Source of the DNA: Deltaproteobacteria bacterium
Lineage (GTDB): Bacteria; Desulfobacterota; Desulfomonilia; UBA1062
Direction of reading: 5' to 3'
NCBI GenBank assembly: GCA_018433085.1
Contig: JAHDRW010000041.1
Span: 19,386 to 83,385, forward strand
DNA length: 64,000 nt
The stretch's first letter is position 1. Every line of letters starts with the position of its first letter. The notes under the pieces were generated by a model. That model was not told the origin of the DNA. It was given only the letters and a program-made list of their open reading frames with translations, and made no database searches. Shown piece by piece: positions 2,899 to 46,249 of this stretch. Both the position numbers and the translations under genes were made by a program.

Positions 2899-4533
2899 TC
2901 ACACCATGTACCCGATTTGAAGGCGCTCGGCCGCATGAAAGTCGTCGATGCCGAGCGCGTCGGACATGCCGATGGGAAGAGACGTGGACCTCCCCATGGG
3001 CGCAAGGATCTTCTTCAGCTCGGCGTCGAAGCTTAAAAAAACGTCGACCAGACGCTCGGCCACGTCTTCCGGGTCAAGCCGGCGGTAGAGCCTGGGGTCC
3101 TGCGAGGTGATCCCCTTGGGGCACCGGCCTATGTTGCAGATGTTGCACCGGTCCCCCTCCGAGCCTACGCACCCGGCCGCTGCCTGCATGAGGTACTTGC
3201 CCACCTGAACCCCGCTTGCGCCGAGCATGATGAGCGCAGCGGCATTTGCCGCCAGGTTGCCGTTCTTCCCCACGCCTCCTGCGGCGAAGAGGGGGATCTC
3301 GTTCTGCTTGCCGATCTTCACCAGATTCAGGTATGCGTCGCGCACATTGGCGGCAATGGGATGGCCCATGTGGTTCATTGACACGTTATATGCCGCCCCG
3401 GTTCCCCCGTCCTCGCCGTCGATGGCCAGGGCGGCCGCGTACCGGTTGCGCGCGATGTTGTTGAGCACCGCGGTCGTAGTGCTGGTCGCCGATATCTTCG
3501 GGTACACCGGCACCCTGAAACCCCATGCCATACAGAGCGACTGGATCATCTTGGCCACGGACTCTTCGATGGAATACTTGGTCTGGTGCGTGGGCGGCGA
3601 AGGCAGACTCACCCCGGGCGGCACCCCCCTGATGGCGGCGATGAGCCCGTTCACCTTGTGCCACATGAGCAGCCCGCCGTCTCCGGGCTTGGCGCCCTGG
3701 CCGTACTTGATCTCGATGGCGCAGGGGTCTTCCTTCATCTCGGGCAGGGCGTGTATGATCTCGTCCCAGCCGAAATACCCGCTCGCGATCTGGAGGATCA
3801 CATACTTGAGGAACCTCGATCTGAGCAGCCGCGGCGGGCACCCGCCCTCGCCCGTGGATATCCTCACGGGCATTCCCAGCTCCTCGTTCAGATAGGCCAC
3901 CCCCATCTGGAGCCCCTCCCACATGTTCGGGGACAGTGCCCCGAACGACATGCCACCCACGATCAGCGGATAAATCTCACGCACCGGGGGTGCCCATCCG
4001 TCCTCACCGGCGGATTTGAGGATCTCCTCGGGCGGCAGGATGCGCCCCAGAAGCGTCCTGAGCTCGAACTCGTGCCTGCCGGCGTCCAGTGCCGGGTCGG
4101 TGAGCATGGAGATGCGTACGAACTTGATGCGGTCGAGGACGCTGGCCGTGTCGTTCCGCCTGCCCCCCCTCCTTCTCGGCTCTCCGCCCTGGTTGATATG
4201 GAACTTGAGCTTGTCGGTCTCCTCGCTCCTCACCGGAAAGATGGCCGAGTTCGGACAGACGAACGAGCACATGCCGCATCCCACGCATGCATGTGCAGGG
4301 TCGGTCTTCTGGTCGATTCCATAAAAAACACGGTACACGTTTCCCGGCCTCTCGCCCAATCCGACAGAAACCGGTATCTCGCGCCTTCGGTGCACCCCGA
4401 GCTCTATTGCCCTCACCGGGCACACCGCGGTGCACTGTCCGCACAGTGTGCACCGGTCTCTGTCCCAGCAGACGCGCCAGGGTAGGTCCCTTGGGCTCAG
4501 TGCAGACGGGTGCAGGGTTCCCATTGGTTCCAT
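2899..4533 (-). CDS. glutamate synthase FMN-binding (central) domain protein with N-terminal 2x[4Fe-4S] ferredoxin
   Basis: The ORF track gives 2899..4740. I trimmed it to ATG 4533 (GGAGG 7 nt upstream) because the first 69 codons overlap the preceding gene. Motifs: CTLCGQCTAVCP, CVGCGMCSFVCP, IKYGQGAKPGDGG, AIDGEDGGTGAA, FAAGGVGKNG. Confidence 0.85.
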   Translation of the reverse strand: MEPMGTLHPSALSPRDLPWRVCWDRDRCTLCGQCTAVCPVRAIELGVHRRREIPVSVGLGERPGNVYRVFYGIDQKTDPAHACVGCGMCSFVCPNSAIFPVRSEETDKLKFHINQGGEPRRRGGRRNDTASVLDRIKFVRISMLTDPALDAGRHEFELRTLLGRILPPEEILKSAGEDGWAPPVREIYPLIVGGMSFGALSPNMWEGLQMGVAYLNEELGMPVRISTGEGGCPPRLLRSRFLKYVILQIASGYFGWDEIIHALPEMKEDPCAIEIKYGQGAKPGDGGLLMWHKVNGLIAAIRGVPPGVSLPSPPTHQTKYSIEESVAKMIQSLCMAWGFRVPVYPKISATSTTTAVLNNIARNRYAAALAIDGEDGGTGAAYNVSMNHMGHPIAANVRDAYLNLVKIGKQNEIPLFAAGGVGKNGNLAANAAALIMLGASGVQVGKYLMQAAAGCVGSEGDRCNICNIGRCPKGITSQDPRLYRRLDPEDVAERLVDVFLSFDAELKKILAPMGRSTSLPIGMSDALGIDDFHAAERLQIGYMV

Positions 4534-5627
4534 CTCCTGACCTCCATCCGCGAGGCATCCACACAGGCAAGGTCGTATTTCATGGGCTGGAATTCGTAGT
4601 TTCCTTCCCGGACGGGAATGGCCCCGTCGAGCCCGCACATCTCGGAAGAAAACGCGAACATCCCGGGCCTGCCCCCTACCACGCCCGGTCTGAGCTTCTT
4701 GCTGTCGTGGACCATGAAGAGGGTCTTGTCGGGCAGACACCCGATCACGCAGTTGGGCCCGTCAATGGCGAGAAGGCGGCATCCGTGCTTGAGCCTTCTC
4801 AGAAACACGCTGTCCGGGTGCCTGATCAGCTCCTCGTCCTTGAGCGGGGTGATGATGTGCTTGTAGTCATCGATCCCGAGCCCCAGCCGGTTTACGGTAT
4901 AGTGCAGGGTATGGGTGAACACCTCGGAGTCCGACTGATAGCCCGTGTATCCGGGAAAACCCCGCGACAACAGATAATCCCGTATAGGCCCGAAGGCGGT
5001 GTTCTCTCCGTTGGTCATGGTGGCAAAGCCCTGGAGGAAGAAGGGGTGGCACGCATAGAGCGTAACGGCATAGTTGGTGTTCTGCCTGCCCTGGGCCATG
5101 ATCACCCGCGCCTTCAGACCCTTGCGGTCGAGCCCGAGATACTCGGCTATGGCCAGGGGATCGCCTACCTCCTTGATCATGATCGTATCCGGCCAGAACG
5201 AGAAAACCACCATGGACCCGTCCTGCCCGCCCAGCCTCCTCAGGTCGATCCGGATCCTCATGAGCCGATCCGCGATCTCTGCCTCGGTGAAGCCCTCCCA
5301 CTCAAGGGGATACTCATACACCCGGATGAGATACACATCACGTTTCGGGGTGCCCTCGGGCGGCATCTTGACGGGCCTGATGGAAAGCTTGAACTTGGTG
5401 AGCAGACCCAATTCCATCATGTAGCGGTCGAGCCTCTTGATCCCTTCCTGGGAGAAAATGCCCGAGAGGATGGGAGAGCCCCTGAACTGCTCCAGATCCC
5501 CGCCGAGATCGGTCATGAGCAGGCCGACCCCGGAACCGTCGTGCCCCTCTTTCATGACGTCCAGGGCCCGCAGGGCGACCATGGGCGAGAGCGGCTCATT
5601 ACTCGTTATGGCGAACAGACGGCACAC
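4497..5627 (-). CDS. class-II (Ntn) glutamine amidotransferase, glutamate synthase domain-1 type
   Basis: The ORF track start is ATG 5681. I prefer GTG at 5627, which gives M-CRLFAITSNEPLS with the nucleophile Cys at position 2. AAGGAGG lies 11 nt upstream. The ATG at 5681 overlaps a sigma-54 -24 element. The HDGSGVGLL motif follows. Confidence 0.8.
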   Translation of the reverse strand: MCRLFAITSNEPLSPMVALRALDVMKEGHDGSGVGLLMTDLGGDLEQFRGSPILSGIFSQEGIKRLDRYMMELGLLTKFKLSIRPVKMPPEGTPKRDVYLIRVYEYPLEWEGFTEAEIADRLMRIRIDLRRLGGQDGSMVVFSFWPDTIMIKEVGDPLAIAEYLGLDRKGLKARVIMAQGRQNTNYAVTLYACHPFFLQGFATMTNGENTAFGPIRDYLLSRGFPGYTGYQSDSEVFTHTLHYTVNRLGLGIDDYKHIITPLKDEELIRHPDSVFLRRLKHGCRLLAIDGPNCVIGCLPDKTLFMVHDSKKLRPGVVGGRPGMFAFSSEMCGLDGAIPVREGNYEFQPMKYDLACVDASRMEVRRWNQWEPCTRLH

Positions 5628-5680: not shown

Positions 5681-5940
5681 TGGGTGCGGGTCCTGTTCAA
5701 CACCGAAGCATCAAAGCAAATTTAATCTATCTATTCCAAGTATTACAAAATAAACCGACCCGGCCGGCACCGTGTCCGCATCCGGGATCCCCCGGCAGAG
5801 CCGGTCCAAAGTATTTTCCAATATTGTTCGATCAGATATGCTTTGCACAAATTTGTTTAATTTTGCCTGTCCGGAACCGATGCGGCCTTTTCCGTGCAGG
5901 TCAGTCCTCGACACCGTGCCGAGGCCGGAAACGGTCTCTT

Positions 5941-7176
5941 TCAGAACTCGGTGAGCTCCGGACCTTTCACCCCGTTCAGGAATTCCTGCACGATTCCGAC
6001 CCCCCGCTTGAAATCCGGAAGGGTTGGAGTCAGGACAGAGAGCCGGATGTAATGCGACCAGCGCGAACCATAGATGTCTCCGGGCGTGATTCGGACGCCC
6101 TGCTCCAGCAGCCTGTCGCGGCATATCCGGCTGGGTATGGGCGTCCTGATCCACACGCAGGGCCCTCCGGCCTCCCATGGCGTATCCTGCGCGAGGTAGG
6201 CGCTCCGCTGGGCGAGCTCGTGCCGCAGCCGTTCGATATGCCCGGTAAGCCGCGACGAGGTGAACACCGTGAGCAGTGAGCGCTGGAGGATGCCCGAGAG
6301 CGAAAGGTCGTTGATCTCCTTGAGATCGAGAATGCCGCTCTGCATGGATTCCGGAAAGACCGCAAACCCCATGCGCAGCCCCGGGCCCAGGATGTTGGAG
6401 AGGCTCTTGATGTAGATGACCCTCTCGCGGGTGTCCCGGGACTTTAAGGGGGTGATCCCGACCACATCGGAAAGGGGATCGTCCTCGACGATGAAGAAGT
6501 CCTTATCAGAAGCCATGGCGATGAGATCGTCCCGCAGATCTTCCGGCATGGATTTTCCGGTCGGGATATGACCCTGCGGCATGGTGTAGAGCAGGCGGAT
6601 ATCCAGATTCCCGATCCGCTCGAGATCTTCGCGGCTCGCGATGCGGGGGACCAAAACAACCTCGGCCCCGAGCGATTCGAAGATCCGCACGGCCCCCATG
6701 TATCCGGGGTCCTCAACAGCCACGGTTTCGCCTCGTTTCAGCCGGGAAAGGCCCAGCAGAAAGAGGGCCTGCTGTGACCCCGAGGTGACGATCGGGGTGG
6801 AGTCGATCCCGGAAGCCCTCAGCCATTTCCCGGCCTGCTCTCGCAGGGGCTCGTACCCCTGGGGGGGATCGTAGGCGTTGAGCCCCTCGATGGTGAGCCT
6901 GAGATGCGTGCTCACCCAGAGCGTGAGATTTTCGGGCGGGCGGATGGCCGCCATGTCGATAATGCCTCCGTTCAGGCCATACGCCACGAAGGTGCCCGCG
7001 CCCTGCCGGCTTACGACCAGACCCTGTTCGAAAAGATACCGGTACACATTTTTTGCCGTCACCAGGCTGATGTTTTCGCTCCTGGCCAGCTCCCTTACGC
7101 CGGGCAGCCGCTCTCCCGGCGTCCTGTCCCTGAGAATACCGTCGGCGAGCCTCCGGGCAATCTGCTTGTAGCGCAT
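5941..7176 (-). CDS. pdxR: MocR/GntR-family regulator with aminotransferase-like domain, PdxR-like by context
   Basis: N-terminal winged HTH (MRYKQIARRLADGILRDRTPGERLPGVRELARSENISLVTAKNVYRYL) followed by a fold-type-I aminotransferase-like body. It is divergent from pdxST. Start moved from 7197 to ATG 7176, which has AAGGAG 6 nt upstream. Confidence 0.75.
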   Translation of the reverse strand: MRYKQIARRLADGILRDRTPGERLPGVRELARSENISLVTAKNVYRYLFEQGLVVSRQGAGTFVAYGLNGGIIDMAAIRPPENLTLWVSTHLRLTIEGLNAYDPPQGYEPLREQAGKWLRASGIDSTPIVTSGSQQALFLLGLSRLKRGETVAVEDPGYMGAVRIFESLGAEVVLVPRIASREDLERIGNLDIRLLYTMPQGHIPTGKSMPEDLRDDLIAMASDKDFFIVEDDPLSDVVGITPLKSRDTRERVIYIKSLSNILGPGLRMGFAVFPESMQSGILDLKEINDLSLSGILQRSLLTVFTSSRLTGHIERLRHELAQRSAYLAQDTPWEAGGPCVWIRTPIPSRICRDRLLEQGVRITPGDIYGSRWSHYIRLSVLTPTLPDFKRGVGIVQEFLNGVKGPELTEF

Positions 7177-8773: not shown

Positions 8774-8873
8774 CAATCAATGGTATGGACCTTGAGGACA
8801 AGCCTGGGTCCCTATTGAAGCCCAAAAGCGGGGGGATGCGACCCTCCCGTCCCGTCCACCGTAGGGGGATTCA
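8774..8873. repeat. intergenic repeat family, diverged copy C
   Basis: It starts TCAATCAATGGTATGGACCTTGAGGACAAGCC and ends GGGGGATTCA. It aligns to copies A (24283-24400) and B (35477-35595) with a 1-nt indel and a shortened 3-prime half. Identity to B is roughly 65-70% by eye. Confidence 0.5.
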
Positions 8874-8885
8874 CGCGGATAAGAA

Positions 8886-8920
8886 GCGCCCCTTTTAAGG
8901 CCTTGCCTTAAAAGGGGCGC
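8886..8920. terminator. bidirectional hairpin terminator between convergent pdxT and the sigma-54 activator gene
   Basis: GCGCCCCTTTTAAGGC (8886-8901) pairs perfectly with GCCTTAAAAGGGGCGC (8905-8920) around a 3-nt loop, a 16-bp stem. There is no long U tract on either side. Confidence 0.6.
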
Positions 8921-8952
8921 CGTATTGCGCGATGCAGACCCCCCGGCACCTC

Positions 8953-10579: not shown

Positions 10580-13198
10580 CTATCCTTCGAAAAAGCACAT
10601 CACCTTTTGCTGCACCACGTTCGAGACGATTCGCACCTTTTTGTCGCGCACATCGAAGACCCGGACCACGTCCCGGTATTTTTTCTCCTCCGGCAGGACC
10701 TCTTCCAGGATATCGGTCAGCCCGTCCTGCCACGATGAGTTGTAGTACACCCCCTCTTTCCAGGGGAAGACGGCCACGAAGAAGATCCGGTTCTCCACGA
10801 GGTCCTGGAAAAAGTGCGTGCCGTAGGAGAGCTCGGGCATGAGGTTGCCCTCGATGGAGGCGATCTCTCCCAGGACCGTCATGTTGCTGATCTCGGAGAA
10901 GTGCACCGGCACGCCCAGGGTGGGCGTGGTGGTTCCCCACCTGCCGGGCCCCAGGAGCATGGTGGGCAGGGCGGTGTGTGCGGAAGCCTGCCGGTTCAGG
11001 AGTCCCACCACCCGGCCGATGTCGTACTTCCGCTGCAGCGGAAGATCCATATATGCCCGGGGCTCCACAGAGATGATGCGGTCGATGGGCTGCGAGATGC
11101 TGCCCCCCATGAAGTTGCCGTTCATGCGGAACAGGACGTTCCTGTCGTCGACCTGCCCGGGAAACTCAACGGGCCTCTCCTCGCCGATGGTCTGCAGCGG
11201 CCGGCACTGGACCAGATTTATCCGAAAATCCTTCCGGCCCGTGAAATTGACCGTGAACTCGACGTCCACGGGATAATCGTAGCCTCTCTCCAGAATTTTC
11301 ATCATGGACTGCATCAGGGAGGGGAAATCGGTGCGGGAGAGGAAGTCGTCGAAGGTGATGATCCATGCATCCTGATCCTTCCTGCCGTACTCCCTGAGCC
11401 TTTGGCTCGTCTCGTCGTCGAACACCGCGACGCTCTGAAGGGGCATTTCGATGCGCTCGCGGGCGAGATCAACAAACGCACGGGTCTGGAGCTCGTTGTC
11501 GTGAGTGTTGATCACGTCCACGCTATGCTGGGAGAAGGCGCGCAGGTCGTCCATCCCGGCAAAGGGCCGCTTCAGGGGATCGTCCAGGGCCACCAGCCGG
11601 GGATAGTCCCCCTCCACCCGGTCCACGGCCCGGGTTCCCAGACCGAGCACCATCCTGAGCATGCCTGCCTTCGGATCCATGCCCTCCTTCCAGACAAAGG
11701 TGTTGCGCGACACCCCCACCCCTCCGATATCCGGGAAGAAATACGGCCCGCGGTAGGAGCCGGACACCCGCTGGACCAGCAGGGCCATCTGCTCGTCCTG
11801 GAACTCCAGCCCCCGCTGCCTGCGGTAGATAAGGGCGCTCTCGTCCATGGTGCTGGCGAAGACCCGCTTGACCGCATCCTCGAACCCGGCGTAGCGCTCC
11901 TCGGGCGGGCCCTGGTTCGCGCAGAAGACGCTCTCGTACTTGCCGGCAAACGCGTTGCCGAAGGAGTCTTCGAGCAGCGAGCTGGAGCGAACGATGATGG
12001 GCGACTGCCCGAAATACTCGATGATCTGGTAGAAGTGCTCCTTGATGTCGTCCGGAAACACCCCCTCGCGCATCCTCTCCGCGAGCACCGGCGCCATGCC
12101 GAAAAACCCCTCGGGCGTCTTCTGTTCCATGCGCAGCTTCCAGCAGCCGTTGTTCACGAGATAGGAATAAAAGACGTCGGAGCCGATATAAAACGAGTCG
12201 TGGGGCTCCAGACGGTTGTTCCAGTCCCTGCCCGTGTCCTCGGCCAGGAGCTTCCGGGAGAGCAGGAGCCCCACGGTCTTGCCGCCGATGAAGCCCGAGC
12301 CGATGAGGCGCACCTTGATGTCCAGCAGATCCTCCAGGCTCAGGTGCTCCTTGACCAGGGCGGACATCCTCGGATCGCGGGTGATCATGAGATCGCAGAG
12401 CTGGGAGACCATCCGCCGCCGCCCCTGCTCCCCGGTATGGGTCGAGGTCAGGCCCTCGGCCTCCATGAAGAGCCTGTCCCAGTAATCCAGGTTCCTCCTC
12501 GAGCTTTCCGTGAACCGCGACATGTGCGTGAAGAGCTTCGAGGCGTCCACGCTGCTGGTCACGGGGATGAACTTCTCCCCCTTTTCCAGGTGGGGCAGGA
12601 ACATGGTGGGTGAATACCGTTTCCATACCTTCAGAGGCTGGACATAAAAATCGCTGTCACAGTTGTATGTATCCAGCAGAACCTGAGTAGTCTCCCTGAT
12701 CCGTGCCACGGTTGCATACGAATGCCGGTTTCTCACCAGGGCGAAATAGGCGACGGTCTTGAGCTCGAAGAGGTAGGGACAGGTGATGAGAAAGAAGTTT
12801 CCGATCATCAGGTCCGTGGCCCATGCCGAGAGCAGATCGGAAAGGCTGTCGAACACATAGTACGCCCCCACCCCCTCGCCGGTGATGATCGTGTGCACCT
12901 GGGTGGAGAACGTCTCGAACCCCTGGCTCGAATCCAGGCGATGGATGGTGAGACCTTCCCGGGGCTGCACCAGGGGCTCGTGCTGAGCGAAACGCATGTA
13001 GACGACCCGGTTGCGTTCATCGAGCGCCCTGGCCACGAACCGTTCCGCGATGTCCTGATAATCGCGGATGTCGTCAACCTGCCAGACCACGTTGTCGCCC
13101 GGCCGCAGCCAGTCGATAACGGGGTCAAGGCCCTGAAGACCCGTACTGACATGATTGATCGCCTTCATTGAGTTATCCCGTAGCACATTATGATTCAT
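10580..13198 (-). CDS. PEP/pyruvate-binding (PPDK_N ATP-grasp) domain protein with a degenerate RecA/KaiC-like N-terminal domain
   Basis: 872 aa. The N-terminus has STGLQGLDPVIDWLRPGDNVVWQVDDIRDY and VFDSLSDLL, a KaiC-like layout without a Walker A GxxxxGK[ST]. The centre has GGKTVGLLLSRKLL and IVRSSSLLEDSFGNAFAGKYESV (PPDK_N). I found no GGxTSH phosphohistidine motif. Confidence 0.7.
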   Translation of the reverse strand: MNHNVLRDNSMKAINHVSTGLQGLDPVIDWLRPGDNVVWQVDDIRDYQDIAERFVARALDERNRVVYMRFAQHEPLVQPREGLTIHRLDSSQGFETFSTQVHTIITGEGVGAYYVFDSLSDLLSAWATDLMIGNFFLITCPYLFELKTVAYFALVRNRHSYATVARIRETTQVLLDTYNCDSDFYVQPLKVWKRYSPTMFLPHLEKGEKFIPVTSSVDASKLFTHMSRFTESSRRNLDYWDRLFMEAEGLTSTHTGEQGRRRMVSQLCDLMITRDPRMSALVKEHLSLEDLLDIKVRLIGSGFIGGKTVGLLLSRKLLAEDTGRDWNNRLEPHDSFYIGSDVFYSYLVNNGCWKLRMEQKTPEGFFGMAPVLAERMREGVFPDDIKEHFYQIIEYFGQSPIIVRSSSLLEDSFGNAFAGKYESVFCANQGPPEERYAGFEDAVKRVFASTMDESALIYRRQRGLEFQDEQMALLVQRVSGSYRGPYFFPDIGGVGVSRNTFVWKEGMDPKAGMLRMVLGLGTRAVDRVEGDYPRLVALDDPLKRPFAGMDDLRAFSQHSVDVINTHDNELQTRAFVDLARERIEMPLQSVAVFDDETSQRLREYGRKDQDAWIITFDDFLSRTDFPSLMQSMMKILERGYDYPVDVEFTVNFTGRKDFRINLVQCRPLQTIGEERPVEFPGQVDDRNVLFRMNGNFMGGSISQPIDRIISVEPRAYMDLPLQRKYDIGRVVGLLNRQASAHTALPTMLLGPGRWGTTTPTLGVPVHFSEISNMTVLGEIASIEGNLMPELSYGTHFFQDLVENRIFFVAVFPWKEGVYYNSSWQDGLTDILEEVLPEEKKYRDVVRVFDVRDKKVRIVSNVVQQKVMCFFEG

Positions 13199-13252
13199 GA
13201 TTGAAACCTATTCATGATTTTTGGACAATATTTAGCCCGTTTATATTTAATG

Positions 13253-13264
13253 TACAATATTGTA
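13253..13264. promoter_or_regulatory. 12-bp perfect palindrome TACAATATTGTA, candidate upstream activator site
   Basis: Self-complementary. Its centre lies ~75 bp upstream of the amtB -24 element. A related ACAATATT sits 29 bp further upstream at 13225-13232. Confidence 0.3.
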
Positions 13265-13302
13265 TCAAGTCATATCTGCGACCTGCCAGATATTATCAAA
13301 GG

Positions 13303-13315
13303 TATCAAAAGGTTG
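13303..13315 (+). promoter_or_regulatory. IHF-consensus-like site between the palindrome and the sigma-54 promoter
   Basis: TATCAAAAGGTTG fits WATCAANNNNTTR exactly. Its position between the putative UAS and -24/-12 is the classical sigma-54 promoter layout. Confidence 0.35.
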
Positions 13316-13330
13316 TGTACCATGAACAGC

Positions 13331-13345
13331 TGGCACCCCCCTTGC
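13331..13345 (+). promoter_or_regulatory. sigma-54 (-24/-12) promoter of amtB-glnK-glnD
   Basis: TGGCAC-CCCCC-TTGC, flanked as CTGGCAC...TTGCT, is a perfect match to YTGGCAC-N5-TTGCW. It ends 48 nt before the amtB ATG, and AAAGGAG precedes the start. Confidence 0.75.
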
Positions 13346-13392
13346 TCTCTCTGCCCAAGCATAAACCTTGTGATGAAAGGAGACCAATTCTT

Positions 13393-14598
13393 ATGATTTC
13401 TTCAGGTGATACCGCTTGGATGCTTGTTGCAACCGCACTGGTCATGCTCATGACGCCAGGGCTCGCCCTTTTCTATGGGGGCCTGGTGCGCTCGAAGAAC
13501 GTCTTGGGCACCATGATGCAGAGCTTCATCTGCCTGGGACTGGTTTCCATTCTCTGGATCGCCTATGGATACAGCCTGGCCTTCGGCGGTGACGTCGGCG
13601 GCATTATCGGCACATTCCAGTGGATCGGCTTCAAGGGCGTAGGTAACGAGGCGGGGCCGTATTCAGATACCATACCGCATCTGCTCTTCGCGGCCTTCCA
13701 GCTCATGTTCGCCATCATCACCCCGGCTCTGATCACGGGCGCGTTTGCCGAACGGATGAAGTTCTCCGGGTTTCTCCTCTTCGTCATTCTCTGGAGCACG
13801 CTCGTGTATCTTCCGGTGTGCCACTGGGTCTGGGGCGGCGGATGGCTGGGCAGGCTGGGAGCGCTCGACTTTGCCGGCGGCACGGTCATTCACGTCAACT
13901 CCGGCACGGGCGCACTGGTGGCAGCCCTGATCATCGGGAGGCGGAAAGGCTACAAAACCCAGGCCATCTATCCCCATAACCTGCCGCTCACGGTGCTCGG
14001 CGCGTCGCTTCTGTGGTTCGGATGGTTCGGTTTCAATGCGGGCAGCGCCCTGGCCGCAAACGGAACCGCGACCCTGGCGTTCTTTACCACACAGGTCGCT
14101 ACGGGTACTGCGGCTCTCTCGTGGATCCTGGCCGAGAAGATCATCCGGGGAAAACCCACCACTTTGGGCGCGGTGTCCGGAGCGGTTGCCGGCCTGGTAG
14201 CCATCACCCCGGCGGCAGGGTTCGTGGGACCTGTCTCGGCGATCATCATCGGCTTTGTGGCGGGAATCCTCTGCTATCTGGCGGTACTGCTCAAGGAGCG
14301 GCTCGGGTACGACGACTCTCTCGATGTGGTGGCTGTCCACGGCATCGGGGGCCTCTGGGGGGCGCTCGCCACCGGTCTGTTCGCATCGGTGGGGGCCAGC
14401 GGCCTGTTCTTCGGGAACGCCCATCAGCTCTTGATCCAGATCATCGGTGCAGGCAGCGCTATCATCTACTCGGGCATTGTTACCACGATCATCCTCCTGG
14501 GGCTGAAATACACCGTGGGCCTGAGGGTGAGCGAGGAAGAGGAGATCCAGGGCCTGGATGTGAGCCAGCACAACGAAACCGGATACGCCATCCGCTGA
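13393..14598 (+). CDS. amtB: ammonium transporter
   Basis: MISSGDTAWMLVATALVMLMTPGLALFYGGLVRSKN...DFAGGTVIHVNSG...GFNAGSA...VHGIGGLWGAL is the Amt family signature. Start moved from 13201 to ATG 13393 (AAAGGAG 10 nt upstream). The sigma-54 promoter lies inside the longer ORF. Confidence 0.95.
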   Translation: MISSGDTAWMLVATALVMLMTPGLALFYGGLVRSKNVLGTMMQSFICLGLVSILWIAYGYSLAFGGDVGGIIGTFQWIGFKGVGNEAGPYSDTIPHLLFAAFQLMFAIITPALITGAFAERMKFSGFLLFVILWSTLVYLPVCHWVWGGGWLGRLGALDFAGGTVIHVNSGTGALVAALIIGRRKGYKTQAIYPHNLPLTVLGASLLWFGWFGFNAGSALAANGTATLAFFTTQVATGTAALSWILAEKIIRGKPTTLGAVSGAVAGLVAITPAAGFVGPVSAIIIGFVAGILCYLAVLLKERLGYDDSLDVVAVHGIGGLWGALATGLFASVGASGLFFGNAHQLLIQIIGAGSAIIYSGIVTTIILLGLKYTVGLRVSEEEEIQGLDVSQHNETGYAIR

Positions 14599-21346: not shown

Positions 21347-24136
21347 TCACAGCGCCCCGGCAATGCGCCTAAGGGCCGCCGGGACATTCCTGTCCAGGAT
21401 GTGGAGGCGCAGCACCTTCCTCTCCTTTTCCTTCAGCGCGTTCCAGTCGCCCAGGGCCTGGGCGCTCTCAAGGGTCCCGAACGAGATGGACGATTGCCAC
21501 GACCCGGGCTCGTCAGGGACCGCGAGATCGTCCGAAACCTGCCGGGTGATCTGGATGAAGAGTCCCCTGCCCTCGTCACCCTTGTGGAGCTGGCCCGTGG
21601 AGTGAAGGTAACGAGGCCCGTACCCGCTCATGACCGCGATCCGGAAGGTGTCCCTGATCTTCGTGCGGAGCATGTCGAGGGCTTCGCCGATCTCGTCCGA
21701 GGGCGGCAGGTACGCCTGGATCGCCACGTACGAGGCTTCGTCCGCCCCGCCCAGAAACGATGCCAGGGCGTCTTCCGTGGTTTCCGCCCGCACGTCGCCG
21801 TACACGCTGATGTGCTGGGCCTTCAGCGCCGGGGCGGTCTCCGGGAGAGCACCGGTATTCCGGAACAGCTCCACCGCCTCTGTCGCTCGTTTCTTCGCGG
21901 CCTCCACGTCGGGCTGATCAAAGGGATTGACGCCGAGAATGTGTCCTGCCACGGCAGTGGCCGTCTCCCAGAGGTAGAACTGCCCGCCGATATCGCACAG
22001 ATCGTGGAGCCCGATGCGCACCACGGGGTGCCCGGCCTTTTCGAGCCCTTCCAGGATCTTGTCGTGGGTGTGATCACCTTCAAGCCACAGGCTCACGAAG
22101 AGCCGGTCGTCCCGGTACTGCCCGGGCGATCCCGGCCGCTCGCGCACGATGGGCACGATGCCCTTGCCCTGCTTGCCCGTGCTCTCGGCGATGAGCTGCT
22201 CCACCCAGTCGCCGAACGAGGCTATCCCGGGCGACAGGAAAAAGGTCACCTTGTTCCTGCCCGCCAGCGCCGACTCGCCGAGGATCGCGCCGAGGATGCC
22301 CCCGGAGTTTGCGCCCTTAGGGGTGCAGATTCCGGTCTGGCAGTTCTCGGTCATGACCAGGGCCCGGTCCAGGAGCGACTTGATGTCCACGCCCATGAGC
22401 GCCGCAGGCACAAGCCCGAAATGGGAAAGGGCCGAGTACCTGCCGCCCAGACCGGGCTCGTTGAGGAAAATGTTCCTGAAATTGTACTTCCGGGCCGTTT
22501 CCATCAGAGGGGAGCCCGGGTCCGTGATCGCGATGAAGTGCTCCCCGGCAGTCTCTGCGCCCAGGGCGTCCGCGGTCACGGTGTAGAAATATCTGAACAA
22601 CGAGAGCGTCTCCACCGTGGTGCCCGATTTGGTCGATACGATGAACAGGGTCGTGGCCGGGTCGACCTTCTGGTATTCGGCGGCAAGAAAGTCGGGATCG
22701 GTGCTGTCGATGACGGCGAGGTCGAGATATCCCTCGCGCACGCCGAAGACGGCCCGCATCACGTCCGGCGCGAGCGACGACCCGCCCATGCCCAGAAGAA
22801 TCGCGCGGGTGTATCCCTTCGATGCCATGTCCCTGGCGAACTGCTCCATCCCGTCCGTGTTATCGAGGATGTCTGCCGGCAGGGAGAGCCAGGCGAGCCG
22901 GTTGACGACCTCCCGGGGGCTCTCGCCCCACACCGTGTGGTCGTGCGCGTAGATCCGTGACATGACCCCGGCCTTTTCCATCTCCCCAAGGCGGGCATCC
23001 ACCCTGGCCTGAAGGTCTCCGAGCTCGGTTGTCATCTGATGCCACCCGGAGATGATGGCCCGCCTCTTGGCCGCGATGCTGTCCATGAGCGAGCGAAACG
23101 ACCCGGCGAAAAGGCCCACGCCGTCCTTCTGCAGCTTGGAGGTCACGGCTTCGAGATCAATGCCCGCCTTCGCGAGCCGCTCGATCTGCGCGAGGGCCTC
23201 CTCAATGCCCGTGCCCAGCGTGCTCTCCGTCTTTCCATGGTCGAGAAAGGCCTGGAGCGTGGCAGGTGGAAGGGTGTTGACCGTATGGGAGCCGATGAGT
23301 TCGTCCACATAGAGCGTGTCCGGATATTTCGGGTTCTTGGTCCCGGTGCTCGCCCACAGCAGTCTCTGGGGACGAGCTCCCTGCTGCTCGAGCGCCTGCC
23401 ACCGATCCCCGGAGAATATTGCGCCGAAGAGCCCGTAGGCTACCTTGGCGTTGGCCACCGCGATCTTTCCCGTGAGGTCGCTCAGCGCGCGTTTTTCGAG
23501 CTCCGGATCGAGCGAGGTGTCCACCCTGCTCACGAAAAACGAGGCCACCGAGGCCACGCGGGCGATGTCGCCGCCCGAGGCAAGGTATCTTTCCAGGCCG
23601 CGCAGGTAGGCGTGAGCCACCTCCTCGTAGCGCCTGACGGAAAAAAGCAGGGTCACGTTGACGTTGATGCCCTCTGCGATCAGGGTCTCGATCGCAGGCA
23701 CGCCTTCCGCGGTGGCAGGGACCTTGATCATGATGTTCGGACGCCCCAGGTCCGCAAAGAGCCGCCTGGCCTCGTGGACGGTCTTTTCGGTATCGTAGGC
23801 CAGCACCGGGCTCACCTCGATGCTCACGTACCCGTCCAGGGCGTTTGTGTCATCGTAGACCTTCCGGAACAGATCCGCCGTCCGGGCGATGTCGTCAAGC
23901 GCGAGATGCTCGTAGACCTCTTCGATTGACAGCCCGTCCCGCACCAGGGCCGTGAGATCGCCATCGTAATCCGAGCTGCCCGCGATGGCCTTTTCGAAGA
24001 TCGTGGGGTTCGACGTGACCCCGCGGATGCCCTGATCGATGAGTGACTGCATCTCGCCCGAGGTGATCAGCGACCTGCGGATGTAGTCGAACCATATCGC
24101 CTGCCCCATTTGGGCCAATGTATGGAGTTTTGCCAT
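21347..24136 (-). CDS. bifunctional transaldolase / glucose-6-phosphate isomerase fusion
   Basis: The N-terminus MAKLHTLAQMGQAIWFDYIRRSLI...GVTSNPTIFEKAI is transaldolase. The C-terminal ~550 aa carry PGI motifs (LLGMGGSSLAPDV, VSTKSGTTVET). Start trimmed to ATG 24136 (AAGGAG 8 nt upstream). Confidence 0.9.
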   Translation of the reverse strand: MAKLHTLAQMGQAIWFDYIRRSLITSGEMQSLIDQGIRGVTSNPTIFEKAIAGSSDYDGDLTALVRDGLSIEEVYEHLALDDIARTADLFRKVYDDTNALDGYVSIEVSPVLAYDTEKTVHEARRLFADLGRPNIMIKVPATAEGVPAIETLIAEGINVNVTLLFSVRRYEEVAHAYLRGLERYLASGGDIARVASVASFFVSRVDTSLDPELEKRALSDLTGKIAVANAKVAYGLFGAIFSGDRWQALEQQGARPQRLLWASTGTKNPKYPDTLYVDELIGSHTVNTLPPATLQAFLDHGKTESTLGTGIEEALAQIERLAKAGIDLEAVTSKLQKDGVGLFAGSFRSLMDSIAAKRRAIISGWHQMTTELGDLQARVDARLGEMEKAGVMSRIYAHDHTVWGESPREVVNRLAWLSLPADILDNTDGMEQFARDMASKGYTRAILLGMGGSSLAPDVMRAVFGVREGYLDLAVIDSTDPDFLAAEYQKVDPATTLFIVSTKSGTTVETLSLFRYFYTVTADALGAETAGEHFIAITDPGSPLMETARKYNFRNIFLNEPGLGGRYSALSHFGLVPAALMGVDIKSLLDRALVMTENCQTGICTPKGANSGGILGAILGESALAGRNKVTFFLSPGIASFGDWVEQLIAESTGKQGKGIVPIVRERPGSPGQYRDDRLFVSLWLEGDHTHDKILEGLEKAGHPVVRIGLHDLCDIGGQFYLWETATAVAGHILGVNPFDQPDVEAAKKRATEAVELFRNTGALPETAPALKAQHISVYGDVRAETTEDALASFLGGADEASYVAIQAYLPPSDEIGEALDMLRTKIRDTFRIAVMSGYGPRYLHSTGQLHKGDEGRGLFIQITRQVSDDLAVPDEPGSWQSSISFGTLESAQALGDWNALKEKERKVLRLHILDRNVPAALRRIAGAL

Positions 24137-24168
24137 ATCTTGCGCTCCTTCACAGATATTGGAAAGTT

Positions 24169-24180
24169 GTGACCGGTCAC
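24169..24180. promoter_or_regulatory. 12-bp perfect palindrome GTGACCGGTCAC upstream of tal-pgi (candidate operator)
   Basis: Self-complementary, lying 33-44 nt upstream of the tal-pgi ATG on the minus strand. Confidence 0.25.
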
Positions 24181-24282
24181 CTACCATACAGGAATCAGGG
24201 ATGAAATCTCAAGTCCCTTTCTCTGCTTTGGAGATTTCCCCGAGACTCCGCTTCCCGTGCCGTTCTCCCGGGGCTTATCCTC

Positions 24283-24400
24283 GATCAATGGTATGCACCT
24301 TCAACGGCAAGCCCTGGACCATATGGAAGCCTCAAGGCCTGAACGGGAATGTGACCCCACCTTCAAGGTCCTGAAGAAGCGGACTCAGAAGGTGGATTCA
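24283..24400. repeat. intergenic repeat family, copy A
   Basis: GATCAATGGTATGCACCTTCAACGGCAAGCCCTGGACC...TGAACGGGAATGTGACCCCACCTTCAAGGTCCTGAAGAAGCGGACTCAGAAGGTGGATTCA. It is about 85% identical by eye to copy B over ~118 nt. Its last 3 nt are the complement of the glk stop codon. Confidence 0.65.
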
Positions 24401-25402
24401 AGGCAGGGTGTCCATGATATCCAGCCCGAAATGGGCGGCCCCTATGAGACCGGCCTTTGGATTGAGGATGACGTGCACCGGGAAGGCGGAGATGACTCCC
24501 GCGAGCCTGCCCTTGCGGAGATACGCCTCCATGAACGGGCTCTGCCCGATGATGGACACAAGCCTGGGCGGTATGCCTCCACCCACGTACACCCCTCCGG
24601 AGGCGAGGATCTTGAGCGCCAGGTTGCCGGTCTCCGCCCCGAGTATGGAGAGGAAGATACGCACCGTCTCCTGGCAGATTTCGCAGGTCGTATCCCGATC
24701 CAGCGCGGCATTCACGATAACGGCGGTGGCATCGGGCTCCCTGACCAGGCTTTCGGCGAGCCAGGCAGGCTCTTCGTGCCTGCCCTGGTCCTTGAGGAAC
24801 GAATAGATGTTGGGAATGCCTGAGCCCGAGCATATCCGCTCGTAGCTGACATGCTCGAAGCGGTCCATGAGGTATTTCAGCATCTCGAGCTCGATAGCGT
24901 CCGCGGGGCCGAACTCGGTGTGCCCGCCCTCTGATGCGTGCGCGAGGTAGCGGTCGCCGTCCCAGGTGAGGTATGCCTCGCCCAGGCCGGTCCCGGCCGC
25001 GATGACCGCGCGCGGGCCGGTAGGGACGACGCTGCCCGTGTTCAGGGTGAGCAGGTCCTCGCCCCCGAGCAAGGGAATGCTGTAGGCCACGGCCTGGAGG
25101 TCGTTGATCAGGCGCACCCTGTCTATCTTCAGCTCGGTCTGGAGATTCCCGGCATCGATCTCCCACGGCAGGTTCGTGATCCGGGCCCGTTTTCCCACCA
25201 CGGGCCCTGCCACGCCAAATACCGCGTGATCGACCCCCGTGACATCATATCGGGCCGAGAACTCCCCGACGATGGCCCTCAGCGAGCTATAGGACCCGCT
25301 GGGATACGTGCCCTCGTACAGGGGCCTTTCGGGACCGCTCTGCGGGGTGTACAGAGCGAGTATGGTCTTGGTCCCTCCGATATCACCTGCAATCAATTTC
25401 AT
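24398..25402 (-). CDS. glk: glucokinase
   Basis: MKLIAGDIGGTKTILALY has the ATP-binding DxGGT motif, followed by an Glk-type sugar-kinase body of 334 aa. Confidence 0.85.
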   Translation of the reverse strand: MKLIAGDIGGTKTILALYTPQSGPERPLYEGTYPSGSYSSLRAIVGEFSARYDVTGVDHAVFGVAGPVVGKRARITNLPWEIDAGNLQTELKIDRVRLINDLQAVAYSIPLLGGEDLLTLNTGSVVPTGPRAVIAAGTGLGEAYLTWDGDRYLAHASEGGHTEFGPADAIELEMLKYLMDRFEHVSYERICSGSGIPNIYSFLKDQGRHEEPAWLAESLVREPDATAVIVNAALDRDTTCEICQETVRIFLSILGAETGNLALKILASGGVYVGGGIPPRLVSIIGQSPFMEAYLRKGRLAGVISAFPVHVILNPKAGLIGAAHFGLDIMDTLP

Positions 25403-29181: not shown

Positions 29182-29223
29182 CCTCTCTCCCGGCTGGATA
29201 AAAACGCCGCATCGAGCAGGCAA

Positions 29224-35476: not shown

Positions 35477-35595
35477 ATTCAACGGCATGGACCTTCAACG
35501 GCAAGCCCCGGACCCTCGTGAAGCCGAAAAGCTTGAACGGGAATGTGACCCCACCTTCAAAGTCCTTAAAGAAGCGGATTTAGAAGATGGATTCA
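35477..35595. repeat. intergenic repeat family, copy B
   Basis: ATTCAACGGCATGGACCTTCAACGGCAAGCCCCGGACC...TGAACGGGAATGTGACCCCACCTTCAAAGTCCTTAAAGAAGCGGATTTAGAAGATGGATTCA. It begins 9 nt after the DnaJ-domain gene stop. A further hairpin follows at 35619-35625/35633-35639 (AAGCGCC/GGCGCTT). Confidence 0.65.
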
Positions 35596-35905
35596 TCCGT
35601 AGTCGTCTGGGGGTCGGGAAGCGCCTTTTGGCGGCGCTTGTACAGCGGAACGGCGGGATTCTCCGGCAGCCTTTTTTAACTGTATGAAAACAAACCCTTG
35701 CAGATCTTTCCTCCGGATACTATAGTACCGGCGCGTGAAAGCCCCAAGAGTCCTGGTAAATTCTCGGGATACGCGGGATGTCGTATATTCTTTCTCAAGT
35801 ATTGAATAGCACGAGACGATAGGAACCGGCAGAGAGCAATACCGATTACCCTCAGGCGAGGAGAAAGGATGTCGAAGCGCCATGGGAATTTTCCGGAGGA
35901 GTGAG

Positions 35906-36286: not shown

Positions 36287-36313
36287 CTTTAAGGTCCTTA
36301 AAGCCGCCTTTTT
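36287..36313. terminator. hairpin CTTTAAGGTCCTTAAAG plus T-run; also a hairpin-only relative (D) of the repeat family
   Basis: CTTTAA/TTAAAG stem with GGTCC loop at 36287-36303, followed by CCGCCTTTTT. It sits between the convergent bactofilin and GGDEF genes. The hairpin matches the 3-prime module of repeats A and B. Confidence 0.5.
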
Positions 36314-42799: not shown

Positions 42800-43056
42800 G
42801 ATCCACTCCCTTATATGCCTGCCGATGTCATCTCATGTATACAGAAGTTATAGAGAAATGCCGGAGGGTAATCAAGGCGTGAGGGCCGGGAAATATGAGC
42901 AGGCACCCTTCCTGAGAATCTTGCCGGGCATGTGCAGGCTCTCCCCCCTTCACGTTCAGGCACGTGCATGCAGATCCATACCCGGCGTATCCTCGAAAAA
43001 AAAGAAATCCCGGTTTTTAAGTATCCCGCAAAGATCGGGGCGCCCGTGACACGTCT

Positions 43057-43587
43057 TCAGGCGCCGTCCAGGCCGTGGTGCTCCATCTCGGCAAACCATG
43101 AACCCGGGTCTTTCAGATATTCCTCGATATCCCTGATGTCGAGAAAATGCTCATGTTTCATCCCGGCGAGTGATCGGAAGAGCTCCCGCTCGTCCGGGTC
43201 CTTGATCCTTTCGCTGAAGAGAGAGAAATATGCCGAAGCCTTATCGATAAGGGATGAAGCCGCCTCGAGTATGGTATAATCGTCATATTCTGTGAGGGCC
43301 TGTGCAATCTCACGGGAGAGCCCGTTCTCGAAATCGTCTGCGCCGTCCAGGGAGGCGGCGGCAGGGTTCTCCGGTGAATCGTTCATGCCGGTTCCCTTGC
43401 TTGCCCGATGCCTGCGAAACCGGTACAGCATCCTGAAATTCCTGCGCCCCTTCTCGGCAAGGTCCTGGAACATCTCCTTGCCCAGCGGGTTTCTGATGTG
43501 TTTTGCCTGTTCCACGAAGAAATCGATGGTCCTCTTTTCGTTGATCAGGGCGGCGTCGAGCCTGGACAGAGTTTGAATGCCTTCCAT
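43057..43587 (-). CDS. ferritin-like/rubrerythrin-type four-helix-bundle protein (tentative)
   Basis: The two halves carry ALINEKRTIDFFVEQAKH and LFRSLAGMKHEHFLDI, which are ExxH-type pairs. Start trimmed to ATG 43587. The assignment rests on motif resemblance only. Confidence 0.5.
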   Translation of the reverse strand: MEGIQTLSRLDAALINEKRTIDFFVEQAKHIRNPLGKEMFQDLAEKGRRNFRMLYRFRRHRASKGTGMNDSPENPAAASLDGADDFENGLSREIAQALTEYDDYTILEAASSLIDKASAYFSLFSERIKDPDERELFRSLAGMKHEHFLDIRDIEEYLKDPGSWFAEMEHHGLDGA

Positions 43588-43747
43588 GCGATCCCCCTTT
43601 TCCCTGATACACGAGCAGAACAATGGTCATTGAATAAGTCTATAATAAGGGCTCGGGCAGGAATGAAAACCGCTTCCCGCCGCTTTCTCTGGGCTGTCGG
43701 GTCAGGCGTGCTCCGTTTTCTGGGGCAAAGACCCAAACGCCCGGGAA

Positions 43748-44472
43748 TCAGCCCAGCTCGCGTATGTCGGAAATGTATCTCGCGTCGAGATGCGCCTGTA
43801 GGGTACGGAAAAAGAGTGGATTCACGGCATGGGGAGGAAGCCCGAGCCGTGGACGACTCTTCGGGCCGTCTCGGGCAGCGAGGCCGGTTTCTCGCAGTGG
43901 TCCAGCACGCAGGAGTGCAGACGCTGCAGGGAGTCCAGCGCCCTGTCCGTCACCTCGAAAATCTCTTCTCCGTAATGGGGCTCGTCCCATGACGAGAGCA
44001 GAACGCTCAGGTTTTCCAGTACCTGGATCGCCCGGATGGACCTGACCGTGGCCGGCGATCATCGTAGATGGGCATCTCCCCCTCGACCGGGACGGCGTCG
44101 CCTGAGAAGAGAACTCCTTCTTCCCGCAGGAAGAGGCCTATATGCCCTTTTGCATGCCCCGGGGGGATGCATCACCTCGAGCGCTCTTCCATGGCCTGCA
44201 TCGATGAGCTCTCCATCCCGGAGCTCCCGGTCCACCGTGAGGGCGCCCTCCACCAGGCGGTGAAAGCCCGGCACCGGCCTCTGACGGTACTGAAGGTCGA
44301 TGTCCTGAATCCAGTCCTTCTCGAGCTCACGGGCCGCCACCACGCAACCGGTCCGTTCCTTTACGGCCAGCGCGCCTCCCATGTGGTCCGGATGGGCATG
44401 GGTGAGGACGGCCAGGCCGATGTCGTCGGGCTCTGTCGAACGCGAAGGCGGGGACCCGCCGCGGCGAATCAC
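43748..44472 (-). pseudogene. metallo-beta-lactamase-fold hydrolase, 5-prime truncated with three frameshifts
   Basis: LAVLTHAHPDHMGG lies only 23 codons after the upstream stop. The reading frame changes at the C6G4 run (44157-44166: LEVMHPPG | HAKGHIGLFLREEGVLFSGDAVPV). It changes again near 44055-44062 (IYDD | PATVRSIRAIQVLENL) and near 43845-43860 (ETARRVVH | LGLPPHAVNPLFFRTLQAHLD). Confidence 0.7.
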
Positions 44473-44987
44473 TTCGAAGCGCCTTTCTGCATTACGGCTG
44501 CCTGTACAACCACGCCTGCAATGCTCAGTGCGGTAAAGATGATGATGCTCGCCGCGACGCCCTCATGGAGCGACTGCGTGATGAGCAGGGAACCCACCAG
44601 GGAAGACAGGATGATGATCGACCAGTCGAAAAACACGGCGAAGAGCACGGCGCACAGGGCGCCAAAGATCGCACCGGCGATCCACGGGGCATTTTCCGAG
44701 GCGAGGTGAAAATAGTTTGCGAGAGAGAAGGCGAAGAACCCCCCGGCAAGAAAACCGGCAAATGCCATGACGAACCGCTTGAAAAAGACGGCCAGGACAC
44801 CCGCGAGGGCTCCCGATCCCAGCGCCGCGGCCACAATCAGCCAGCCGGGCCGGCCGTGGAGGATCTGGGGCGCGGCGATCAGTGCGTACAGCAAAACCAC
44901 CAGGCCCACGAAGAGCCAGTACAGCTGCCTTCCGAACATGATCAGCCAGACGCCTGCCAGAATGTTGATCGTATCCAGACTCACCAT
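44469..44987 (-). CDS. multi-pass integral membrane protein, hypothetical
   Basis: 172 aa, about 5-6 hydrophobic helices rich in Gly/Ala/Phe (GVWLIMFGRQLYWLFVGLVVLLYALIAAP...). Its stop overlaps the first codon of the open frame of the MBL pseudogene. Confidence 0.6.
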   Translation of the reverse strand: MVSLDTINILAGVWLIMFGRQLYWLFVGLVVLLYALIAAPQILHGRPGWLIVAAALGSGALAGVLAVFFKRFVMAFAGFLAGGFFAFSLANYFHLASENAPWIAGAIFGALCAVLFAVFFDWSIIILSSLVGSLLITQSLHEGVAASIIIFTALSIAGVVVQAAVMQKGASK

Positions 44988-45190
44988 CACGCCGCTCTTC
45001 CATTACACTGCAGATGTTTTCTCGCAGGTCCCTGCATCTTTCGCAAGAACAAAGGGACAGGGGCATTCCCTGCCGATGCATGCCGCAACGAAGTCCGCAG
45101 CGGATAAAACCGGCCGGGCATACCCTGTTCTTCAACCGGGAGCCATGCATCAAAAAAAGGTGCCTGGCCCCCTCGCAAGACGTGGTCCGG

Positions 45191-45532
45191 CTAGTGACGT
45201 CCGCCGGTCCTTCGTCCTCCTCCGCCTCCGCCTCCCCTCATGGGACCGCCGAAACCTCGTCCGCCGCCACCCCGTGAAGAACCGCCTTCGGTTCTCGGGC
45301 GCGCCTCGTTGACACTTAAGGCCCTGCCCTTGAACTCTTTGCCGTTCAGCTCATTGATGGCGGACCGTGCCTCCTCTGCAGACGGCATCTCGACAAAACC
45401 GAATCCCTTGGACTGACCGCTGAATTTGTCTTTGATGATGTTAACACTCGCGATCTCGCCAAAGTCTCCGAATGCCGACCGTAAATCTTCTTCCGTGACA
45501 CTGTACGCCAAGTTTCCTACGTAGATGTTCAT
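45191..45532 (-). CDS. RRM-type RNA-binding protein with Gly/Arg-rich tail
   Basis: MNIYVGNLAYSVTEEDLRSAFGDFGEIASVNIIKDKFSGQSKGFGFVEM contains RNP2 and RNP1, followed by RGGGGRGFGG...GGGGGGGRR. ATG 45532 has AAGGAG 9 nt upstream. Confidence 0.9.
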   Translation of the reverse strand: MNIYVGNLAYSVTEEDLRSAFGDFGEIASVNIIKDKFSGQSKGFGFVEMPSAEEARSAINELNGKEFKGRALSVNEARPRTEGGSSRGGGGRGFGGPMRGGGGGGGRRTGGRH

Positions 45533-45826
45533 AAATGGTTCTCCTTTAGGGTTTTTCACTAGTTCAGCTTGCAGATACGTAAGGCGGGAATCGAGGAGCA
45601 TGCCAGCCGAAACGTCTCTCATCTCTGTACGGTGTTTTCAATCACGCGAATCGTTCATCCAATCAAAAATGTTCTTGATATTATGTATGAAGTGAACATG
45701 GAAAAAAGCAACACCCTTTCCCCTTTTTTCCAGAAATAAAGAATCGGCGGCGTGATCATCATCAACTTATTCTATAGCTGTTTTACGTTTCTTCACAAGA
45801 AAATAATGCATGTATTCCCGGCACAC

Positions 45827-46216: not shown

Positions 46217-46249
46217 CTGCACACCCTCCTGTATGCGTTCATGTTTTTT

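Follow-up and report, generated by a model that had tools for sequence, protein, structure and literature searches.

Three intergenic repeats in the 64-kb window (the whole stretch of DNA analysed here), termed copies A, B and C, are probably copies of one small, non-coding and non-autonomous mobile element, and the family that they represent is probably a mobile selfish repeat. Comparison of occupied and empty loci, as read from the aligned sequences, showed precise insertion into spacers at the trinucleotide TCA, with insertions that differ between close relatives. An earlier note on this DNA had seen no obvious IS or MITE in the repeat and had leaned towards a structured RNA instead of a mobile element; this view was not upheld, because sites filled in one genome were found to be exactly vacant in close relatives. 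The family is previously undescribed, yet it is of a familiar kind, the miniature non-autonomous mobile repeat.

Copies in the window

With refined boundaries, copy A was placed at 24285–24400 (116 nt, intact), copy B at 35479–35595 (117 nt, intact) and copy C at 8777–8873 (97 nt, old and decayed). All three are on the + strand and essentially where the earlier note had located them. An nhmmer model built solely from copies at non-orthologous sites in other genomes recovered A, B and C from the 64-kb window with E values of 7e-26, 9e-27 and 6.5e-11, respectively. The same model found no fourth copy in the window, where the next best match had an E value of 1.8. The resemblance among A, B and C is well beyond chance. 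Copies A and B were 85% identical over 91 nt without gaps and 85.7% identical over 105 nt by blastn (E 1.7e-18), in agreement with the earlier estimate of about 85%. The identical core reported for this pair was also found, as TGAACGGGAATGTGACCCCACCTTCAA at 24340–24366 and 35534–35560, with a length of 27 nt rather than about 30 nt. As described before, all three copies begin with TCAAYGGYATGSACCTT and end with GGATTCA; C is more diverged from A and B, yet alignable along its length.

Within copy A, the left TCA occupies 24285–24287 and the conserved 5′ block 24285–24301. The tip of a GG-CAAG-CC hairpin (24306–24313), a conserved GGGAATGTGACCCC (24345–24358) and the two arms of the 3′ hairpin, CCACCTTC (24357–24364) and GAAGGTGG (24388–24395), follow, the arms being exactly where the earlier note had put them. 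The right TCA (24398–24400) is the complement of the glk stop codon TGA, the glk ORF spanning 24398–25402 on the − strand; this relation had been correctly noted.

All copies sit in intergenic spacers, as had been claimed, and among nine copies six were sense and three antisense to the neighbouring genes. The spacer that holds copy A runs from the glk stop codon to the tal-pgi start (24187), and the copy is antisense to both genes. Copy B begins 10 nt past the stop codon of a DUF1232/DnaJ-domain gene, lies in sense orientation upstream of a bactofilin gene and has one C·A mismatch in its 3′ hairpin. Copy C begins 12 nt past the pdxT stop codon; compared with its orthologue it has lost 11 nt from the 3′ hairpin, and a long hairpin comes after it at about 8884–8920. 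This GC-rich hairpin (GCGCCCCTTTTAAGG...CCTTAAAAGGGGCGC) lies between the convergent pdxT and sigma-54 activator genes and is probably a bidirectional terminator.

A hairpin-only fragment at 36287–36303, called D in the earlier note, does not belong to the family. It has 10 nt in common with B (E 5.3), was missed by every model and is a chance match. The sequence there is a perfect palindrome, CTTTAAGG-T-CCTTAAAG, followed by a T-rich run immediately past the bactofilin stop codon, and is probably a terminator-like hairpin. Upstream of the bactofilin gene, at 35665–35720, TGAAAACAAACCCTTGCAGAT...GATACTATAGTA is kept in L013 and partly in L020, whereas the surrounding spacer is not; the segment is probably the bactofilin promoter region. 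Elsewhere in the window, positions 43000–46250 hold several ORFs of 150–215 aa in both orientations, for which no Pfam match was obtained besides a weak, sub-threshold TM7S3/TM198-like one.

The earlier note had set copy A inside a probable glk-tal-pgi transcript. A promoter-like site (TTGAGA, 18-nt spacer, TATGGT) was found upstream of tal-pgi at 24212–24183 on the − strand, and this block is kept in L016, L020 and L037, of which L037 and L016 are without copy A. From this pattern, tal-pgi probably has its own promoter downstream of copy A. Since the block is conserved in relatives that have no copy A, A need not be within such a transcript. Transaldolase and phosphoglucose isomerase are encoded in the window by a single ORF of 946 aa (21347–24187, − strand). 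The fusion is 929 aa long in L016, and in L020, a 69% relative, tal and pgi are separate overlapping genes of 367 aa and 562 aa (11242–14030).

Anatomy, ends and coding capacity

Copies are 97–120 nt long, and the anatomy of the element was derived from a 10-copy alignment. The 5′ terminus TCAATGGYATGGACCTT is highly conserved. The small 5′ hairpin has a CAAG loop and a stem that depends on the subfamily (CAGGG/CCCTG, GAAGGG/CCCTTC or CCGGG/CCTGG). In a long variant, the whole 5′ module forms a 48-nt near-perfect palindrome up to the terminus (z −2.4), and in several short copies TCAATGG can pair with CTATTGA. An internal block, GGAATGYGACCC, is conserved as well. The 3′ hairpin has 8 bp plus an inner stem, and its foot is separated by 5 nt from the end of the element (...GGATTCA), leaving 2 nt ahead of the closing TCA. 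This hairpin and the 5′ one are unlike in both sequence and size; the 5′ hairpin stands some 14–15 nt away from the left cleavage site. On the right side, the GA of GYGACC, located two nucleotides ahead of the 3′ hairpin, is able to form pairs with the TC of the terminus in 7–8 of the nine scorable copies, and a third pair (T-A) forms in five of nine. At the left end, a TGA able to pair is present in some copies only. A REP-type palindrome of 20–40 nt with a GTAG-type tetranucleotide was absent from the alignment.

All eight intact copies have TCA at either border. The left TCA is preceded by A or T in every case, giving (A/T)TCA, and the right terminus is TTCA throughout; apart from this, the flanks are unrelated. 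Because the trinucleotide is invariant across copies, a duplication is indistinguishable from a target motif plus an element terminus. Terminal inverted repeats were sought by aligning the first 30 nt with the reverse complement of the last 30 nt, and none was found above shuffled controls, in accordance with the earlier note. The end-to-end local alignment score was 4–5, equal to the shuffle mean, in seven of eight copies; copy A scored 8, a value reached by 26 of 500 shuffles. Both ends have ACCTTC in common, with unequal spacing to the terminus.

Six-frame translation of 11 copies revealed no reading frame open across copies, as indels shift the frame. Owing to such indels, the peptide ECDPTFK occurs in three different frames. 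When a 206-aa composite of all frames was searched against a collection of 5.8 billion sequences, no protein was found. No transposase domain was detected in the 30 window ORFs tested, in line with the earlier note, and the gene tables of related loci listed housekeeping genes only.

Copies in other genomes

An exact-pattern scan of one genome per species gave two matches, both in metagenome-assembled genomes labelled "Deltaproteobacteria bacterium" (SM3-B3m and LM3-B1m). The 8-kb locus L002 contained three copies (4148–4265, 5051–5170 and 2605–2705), and L001 contained one (1988–2100). Contigs of relatives were collected through homologues of Glk and PdxT. L013, with 90% Glk identity, carried two copies, including one at 6262–6374. 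The orthologue of B lies at 370–478 on the − strand of L013 and is 74.5% identical, with a decayed 3′ end. Orthologues of C were present in L032–L036 (110 nt, 84% identical, with a complete 3′ hairpin), in L030/L031, where the 3′ part is deleted, and in L041. The long variant, of 173 nt, occurred in L030/L032.

Copies were found only in relatives at about 88–90% protein identity, and none was seen in about 130 kb (partly redundant) from relatives at 69–76% Glk identity. BLAST against phage and plasmid records gave no match, and a scan of viral contigs gave 0 matches. A metagenome pattern scan returned 10 matches, about the number estimated for chance alone, of which only L004 and, doubtfully, L006 looked related; a match in L012 lies inside a methyltransferase ORF and was rejected. 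At L004, an AT-rich metagenome contig, TCAATGGCATGGACC...CAAGCCCTGGAACC...TTTAAGGGGAAACGACC stands directly after a T-run at 1818–1879. Its E value was 1e-5 to 1e-4, but the locus had been chosen by the search pattern itself. This segment may be remotely related to the 5′ two-thirds of the element, in another organism. About nine independent insertion loci were sampled, all from metagenome assemblies, and in these data the family looks limited to a narrow clade of uncultured deltaproteobacteria.

Occupied and empty sites

Occupancy differed between close relatives at three loci. In the spacer between the ETF-alpha and FMN-reductase genes, a 113-nt copy was present in L013 (6262–6374) and absent from L038, the window, L016 and L020. 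The junctions in L013 read ...GTTCCAA-TCA-[ATGG...GGAT-TCA]-GCCCGAAAAG, and the empty site of L038 reads ...TTTCTAC-TCA-GCCCGGGG, with one TCA only. The unoccupied site of the window is at 29190–29203 on the − strand, in a 42-nt spacer. Read on this strand, the window has ...GTTTTTATCCAGCC... and L038 has ...CTACTCAGCCCG... with a single TCA; the window's own empty site is TCCA, not TCA. The statement in the earlier note that there is no target-site duplication therefore does not stand as worded, since TCA flanks the intact copies left and right, against a single TCA at the clean empty site.

In the glk/tal-pgi spacer, the window has a copy, whereas L037–L040 (88% Glk identity) and L016 (76%) have none. 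On the glk strand, the window reads CTGCCT-TGA-[element]-TGA-TCGAGG..., and L037–L040 read CTGCCT-TAA-GTTGCGGG in a spacer of 149 nt; the spacer of L016 is 89 nt. The relatives have TAA, not TGA, at the A site, where the codon may already have been TGA before insertion. Copy A, which abuts the glk stop codon, may supply it. The third locus is that of the 173-nt long variant, filled in L030/L032 and absent from the window. A possible 3′ remnant of this variant (CGGAC..AGGCAAAATTAA) was located at 5845–5873 on the − strand of the window, where the alignment is ambiguous; it weakly suggests that the window keeps about 20 nt of the 3′ end of the long variant.

A second, unrelated small repeat of about 155–190 nt was observed in L032 (601–756), L030 (564–755) and L013 (11005–11029), and is not in the window. 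Its ends form clear inverted repeats, CACTGCAGTGG...CCACTGTAGT, and GGGGTCAGGTCTC palindromes occur inside it. In the 90% relatives, this repeat starts directly past the glk stop codon, which is the position of copy A in the window, and three Logan contigs (L013–L015) stop about 20–24 nt past the glk stop, within the repeat. The sequence after glk in L013–L015 was considered as a diverged copy A and rejected, being a different repeat that has inverted repeats.

Divergence after insertion

Orthologous pairs were 74.5% (B/L013a), 84% (C/L032C), 83% (C/L030C) and 95% (L032C/L030C) identical. In the pooled orthologous copies, 318 of 380 positions (83.7%) were identical, compared with 346 of 417 four-fold degenerate sites of flanking genes (83.0%) and with 70–76% in other or neighbouring spacers of the same genomes. 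The two window pairs had 10–13 gapped columns; the 11-nt deletion lies in C, and L030 has a 3′ truncation. Alignment of these orthologues showed that the copies drift at about the rate of four-fold sites and spacers and lose pieces. The L032C/L030C pair, 95% identical versus 87% at four-fold sites, makes a mild constraint on the element possible. Overall, there is no selection detectable from these alignments on the element, either as an RNA or as a site.

Alternative explanations

A search of the whole window against Rfam at the gathering score gave no match, in agreement with the earlier note, in which no named RNA family had been recognised. Permissive scans of A, B and C (E up to 10) returned noise only, and the IS605-orfB and HEARO guide-RNA families gave no match at any threshold in Rfam. 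A match to the Pxr sRNA of myxobacteria (RF01812) at 8824–8928, over the 3′ half of C plus the hairpin after it and adjoining the sigma-54 activator gene, reached 26.3 bits (E 0.006) against a gathering score of 80. It was rejected, being driven by the hairpin downstream of C and containing many non-standard pairs, and A and B gave none. The minimum free energy of the + strand was close to that of shuffles (z +0.2 to −1.0); on the − strand only A stood out (z −2.3), B and C did not, and DNA folding parameters gave the same picture as RNA folding. In the 3′ hairpin, 80% of cells were paired versus 31–59% in slid controls, and three pairs were changed on both sides, for example CCACCTTC/GAAGGTGG in A versus CTTCCTTC/GAAGGAAG in L001. 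The covariation score of this hairpin was not above that of shuffled controls, as 67 of 500 shuffles attained it. The two mutually exclusive foldings proposed earlier for A received no comparative support. Neither promoter-like nor terminator-like sites were seen within or next to A or B, and the sole terminator-like site near C is the downstream hairpin, outside the element. A sigma-54 promoter reading, in which TGGYATG-N4-TT is like a −24 element, was dismissed by eye, as the invariant GC at −12 is missing. With neutral-like divergence and with folding and covariation at the level of shuffles, the leaning of the earlier note towards a structured RNA was not borne out, and the element is not a new regulatory RNA.

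It is very unlikely that the copies form a small regulatory or cis-acting RNA family, each expressed and selected for its fold. Such a family would agree with the conserved 3′ hairpin and its few changes on both sides of pairs, with the conserved internal block and with the six of nine copies that are sense to the upstream gene and could act as 3′ UTR elements. However, no Rfam family was found at the gathering score and nothing meaningful up to E 10, the + strand folds no better than shuffles, the covariation score was matched by shuffles, and A and B have no promoter-like or terminator-like site. Moreover, three of nine copies are antisense to their neighbours, orthologues diverge as four-fold sites and spacers do, deletions take out the hairpin, and presence at the same locus varies between close relatives. 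The strictly extragenic location, often just past a stop codon or terminator (GCGG..TTTT-like sequences precede C, L013b and the long variant), and the hairpin nature of the modules would also suit a host-maintained REP/BIME-type repeat, acting as a protein-binding site, an mRNA 3′-end stabiliser or a terminator helper and spread by a domesticated RAYT. This origin is most unlikely, as the element has neither a 5′ GTAG nor a 20–40 nt palindrome and is an approximately 115-nt composite of unlike modules, copies are lost or decayed in close relatives without replacement, and the observed copy number is low. As for leftovers of a duplicated gene end, named in the earlier note as the case that would undo its reading, or a segmental duplication within the genome, B and C do lie just 3′ of + strand genes. 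Nevertheless, similarity ends exactly at TCA on both sides with unrelated flanks, no frame is conserved, and the composite peptide search found nothing. Copies at many unrelated loci in other genomes effectively refute a duplication, the probability of which is negligible.

The main alternative is a cut-and-paste miniature element moved by a DDE transposase, with a 3-bp TCA duplication and inverted repeats too short or degenerate to be detected. A 3-bp target-site duplication explains the flanking TCAs equally well, given TCA on both sides of eight of eight intact copies and one TCA at the clean empty site. The size, the absence of coding capacity and the spacer location suit a miniature inverted-repeat element, and the second small repeat with clear inverted repeats in the same genomes indicates that such elements are active in the lineage. 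On the other hand, no terminal inverted repeat was found, seven of eight copies scoring as shuffles, and ACCTTC, although common to the ends, lies at unequal distances from the termini. The 3′ stem also changes on both arms between subfamilies (CCACCTTC/GAAGGTGG versus CTTCCTTC/GAAGGAAG), which suggests that structure rather than duplex sequence is recognised; these changes are not statistically significant. Taken together, a DDE element is considered unlikely.

Comparison with known systems and proposed mechanism

The element has several features of MITEs, being small, non-coding, multi-copy (at least nine loci) and variable in presence between relatives. In Correia/NEMIS and ERIC elements, the inverted repeats measure at least about 20 bp and the duplicated target is TA. 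The element resembles them in its range of about 100–150 bp, its intergenic and non-coding nature, its insertion polymorphism and its short direct junction repeat, but it is without terminal inverted repeats. REP/BIME sequences are hairpin-forming extragenic repeats mobilised by REP-associated tyrosine transposases, probably with single-strand processing. The element is likewise extragenic and hairpin-forming, has no transposon-type inverted termini and would probably share the single-strand processing; it differs in having no GTAG-type 5′ tetranucleotide, in its much greater length and unlike modules, and in that no clusters or mosaics were seen. IS91 and Helitron transposons have the target motifs GTTC/CTTG and A^T and the termini CTRR, and to our knowledge derivatives so small have not been established in bacteria. 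The element is like them in having no inverted repeats, no clear duplication, a fixed short adjoining motif and a 3′ subterminal hairpin, and, if the left TCA is counted in, it starts 5′-TC between A/T and T. However, its target motif and termini do not match, and no Y2 (two-tyrosine HUH) transposase gene was seen.

TnpA of the IS200/IS605 family attaches to hairpins just inside the ends, and bases beside the hairpin foot recognise the cleavage motifs by pairing with them (PMC3201880). The subterminal imperfect palindromes of IS608 are some 19 nt distant from the cleavage site on the left and some 10 nt from that on the right, and both end hairpins are recognised by one TnpA (PMC3201880). Palindrome-associated transposable elements (PATEs) are protein-less derivatives of IS200/IS605 (PMC10055086). 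Similar to PATEs, the element is short, non-coding, dispersed in spacers and without terminal inverted repeats, and has hairpins near both ends. A fixed motif abuts its left end, a similar motif forms its right terminus, and the empty site keeps one, again as in PATEs. In addition, in most scorable copies bases just ahead of the right hairpin are able to pair with the motif at the terminus, like the guide and cleavage sequences of IS608 (PMC3201880; PMC10055086). In contrast to both, the left and right hairpins of the element are unlike each other, and its right hairpin is 5 nt from the end, whereas that of IS608 is 10 nt away (PMC3201880). The element also differs from PATEs in that its motif is 3 nt (or WTCA) rather than a clear tetra- or pentanucleotide, that no TnpA/TnpB partner was seen in the 30 window ORFs and no omega RNA match in Rfam, and that its orientation, 3 to 2, has no clear bias.

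The lack of inverted repeats, the hairpins near both ends, in which the stem rather than the sequence seems to be preserved, and the fixed junction motif together favour HUH-type single-strand transposition over the other routes. By analogy with the systems above, movement by such a route is put forward tentatively. An enzyme encoded elsewhere in the genome would move the element in trans as a PATE-like element, by single-strand transposition in the "peel and paste" style of IS200/IS605. Insertion takes place precisely at TCA in spacers, leaving TCA on both sides. Afterwards, copies drift and lose pieces, and any effect on neighbouring genes, such as that of A at the glk stop codon, would be incidental. 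Against this mechanism, no autonomous parent or transposase was found in the 30 window ORFs tested or in the gene tables of related loci. Of the five copies in the syntenic region, three (A, B and C) have + orientation and two (L013b and the long variant) − orientation; the + strand GC skew is −0.04, and the orientation sample is small. This 3:2 orientation lacks the strong strand bias expected for insertion into the lagging-strand template.

A more specific version of the single-strand route would make the element a minimal form of an undescribed HUH-type transposon family, in which the terminal TCAs would be read by internal GA/TGA guide bases beside two unlike hairpins. Transcripts of the copies could then also provide, in trans, the guide-RNA scaffold of a TnpB-like nuclease whose gene lies elsewhere in these genomes. 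This extension is regarded as improbable.

Implications

Long spacers and contig breaks in these metagenome-assembled genomes are accounted for by the family together with the second small repeat of the relatives, and both repeats should be masked ahead of any search for promoters or small RNAs. The family is an ordinary kind of selfish DNA and leaves the present view of bacterial mobile DNA as it was. Still, it provides a clean case of a miniature element without inverted repeats whose junctions are exactly defined. As copy A illustrates, an insertion of this sort can end up next to the stop codon of a gene and perhaps even provide it. If the partner enzyme is found, the family may represent a new end architecture for a single-strand transposon family.
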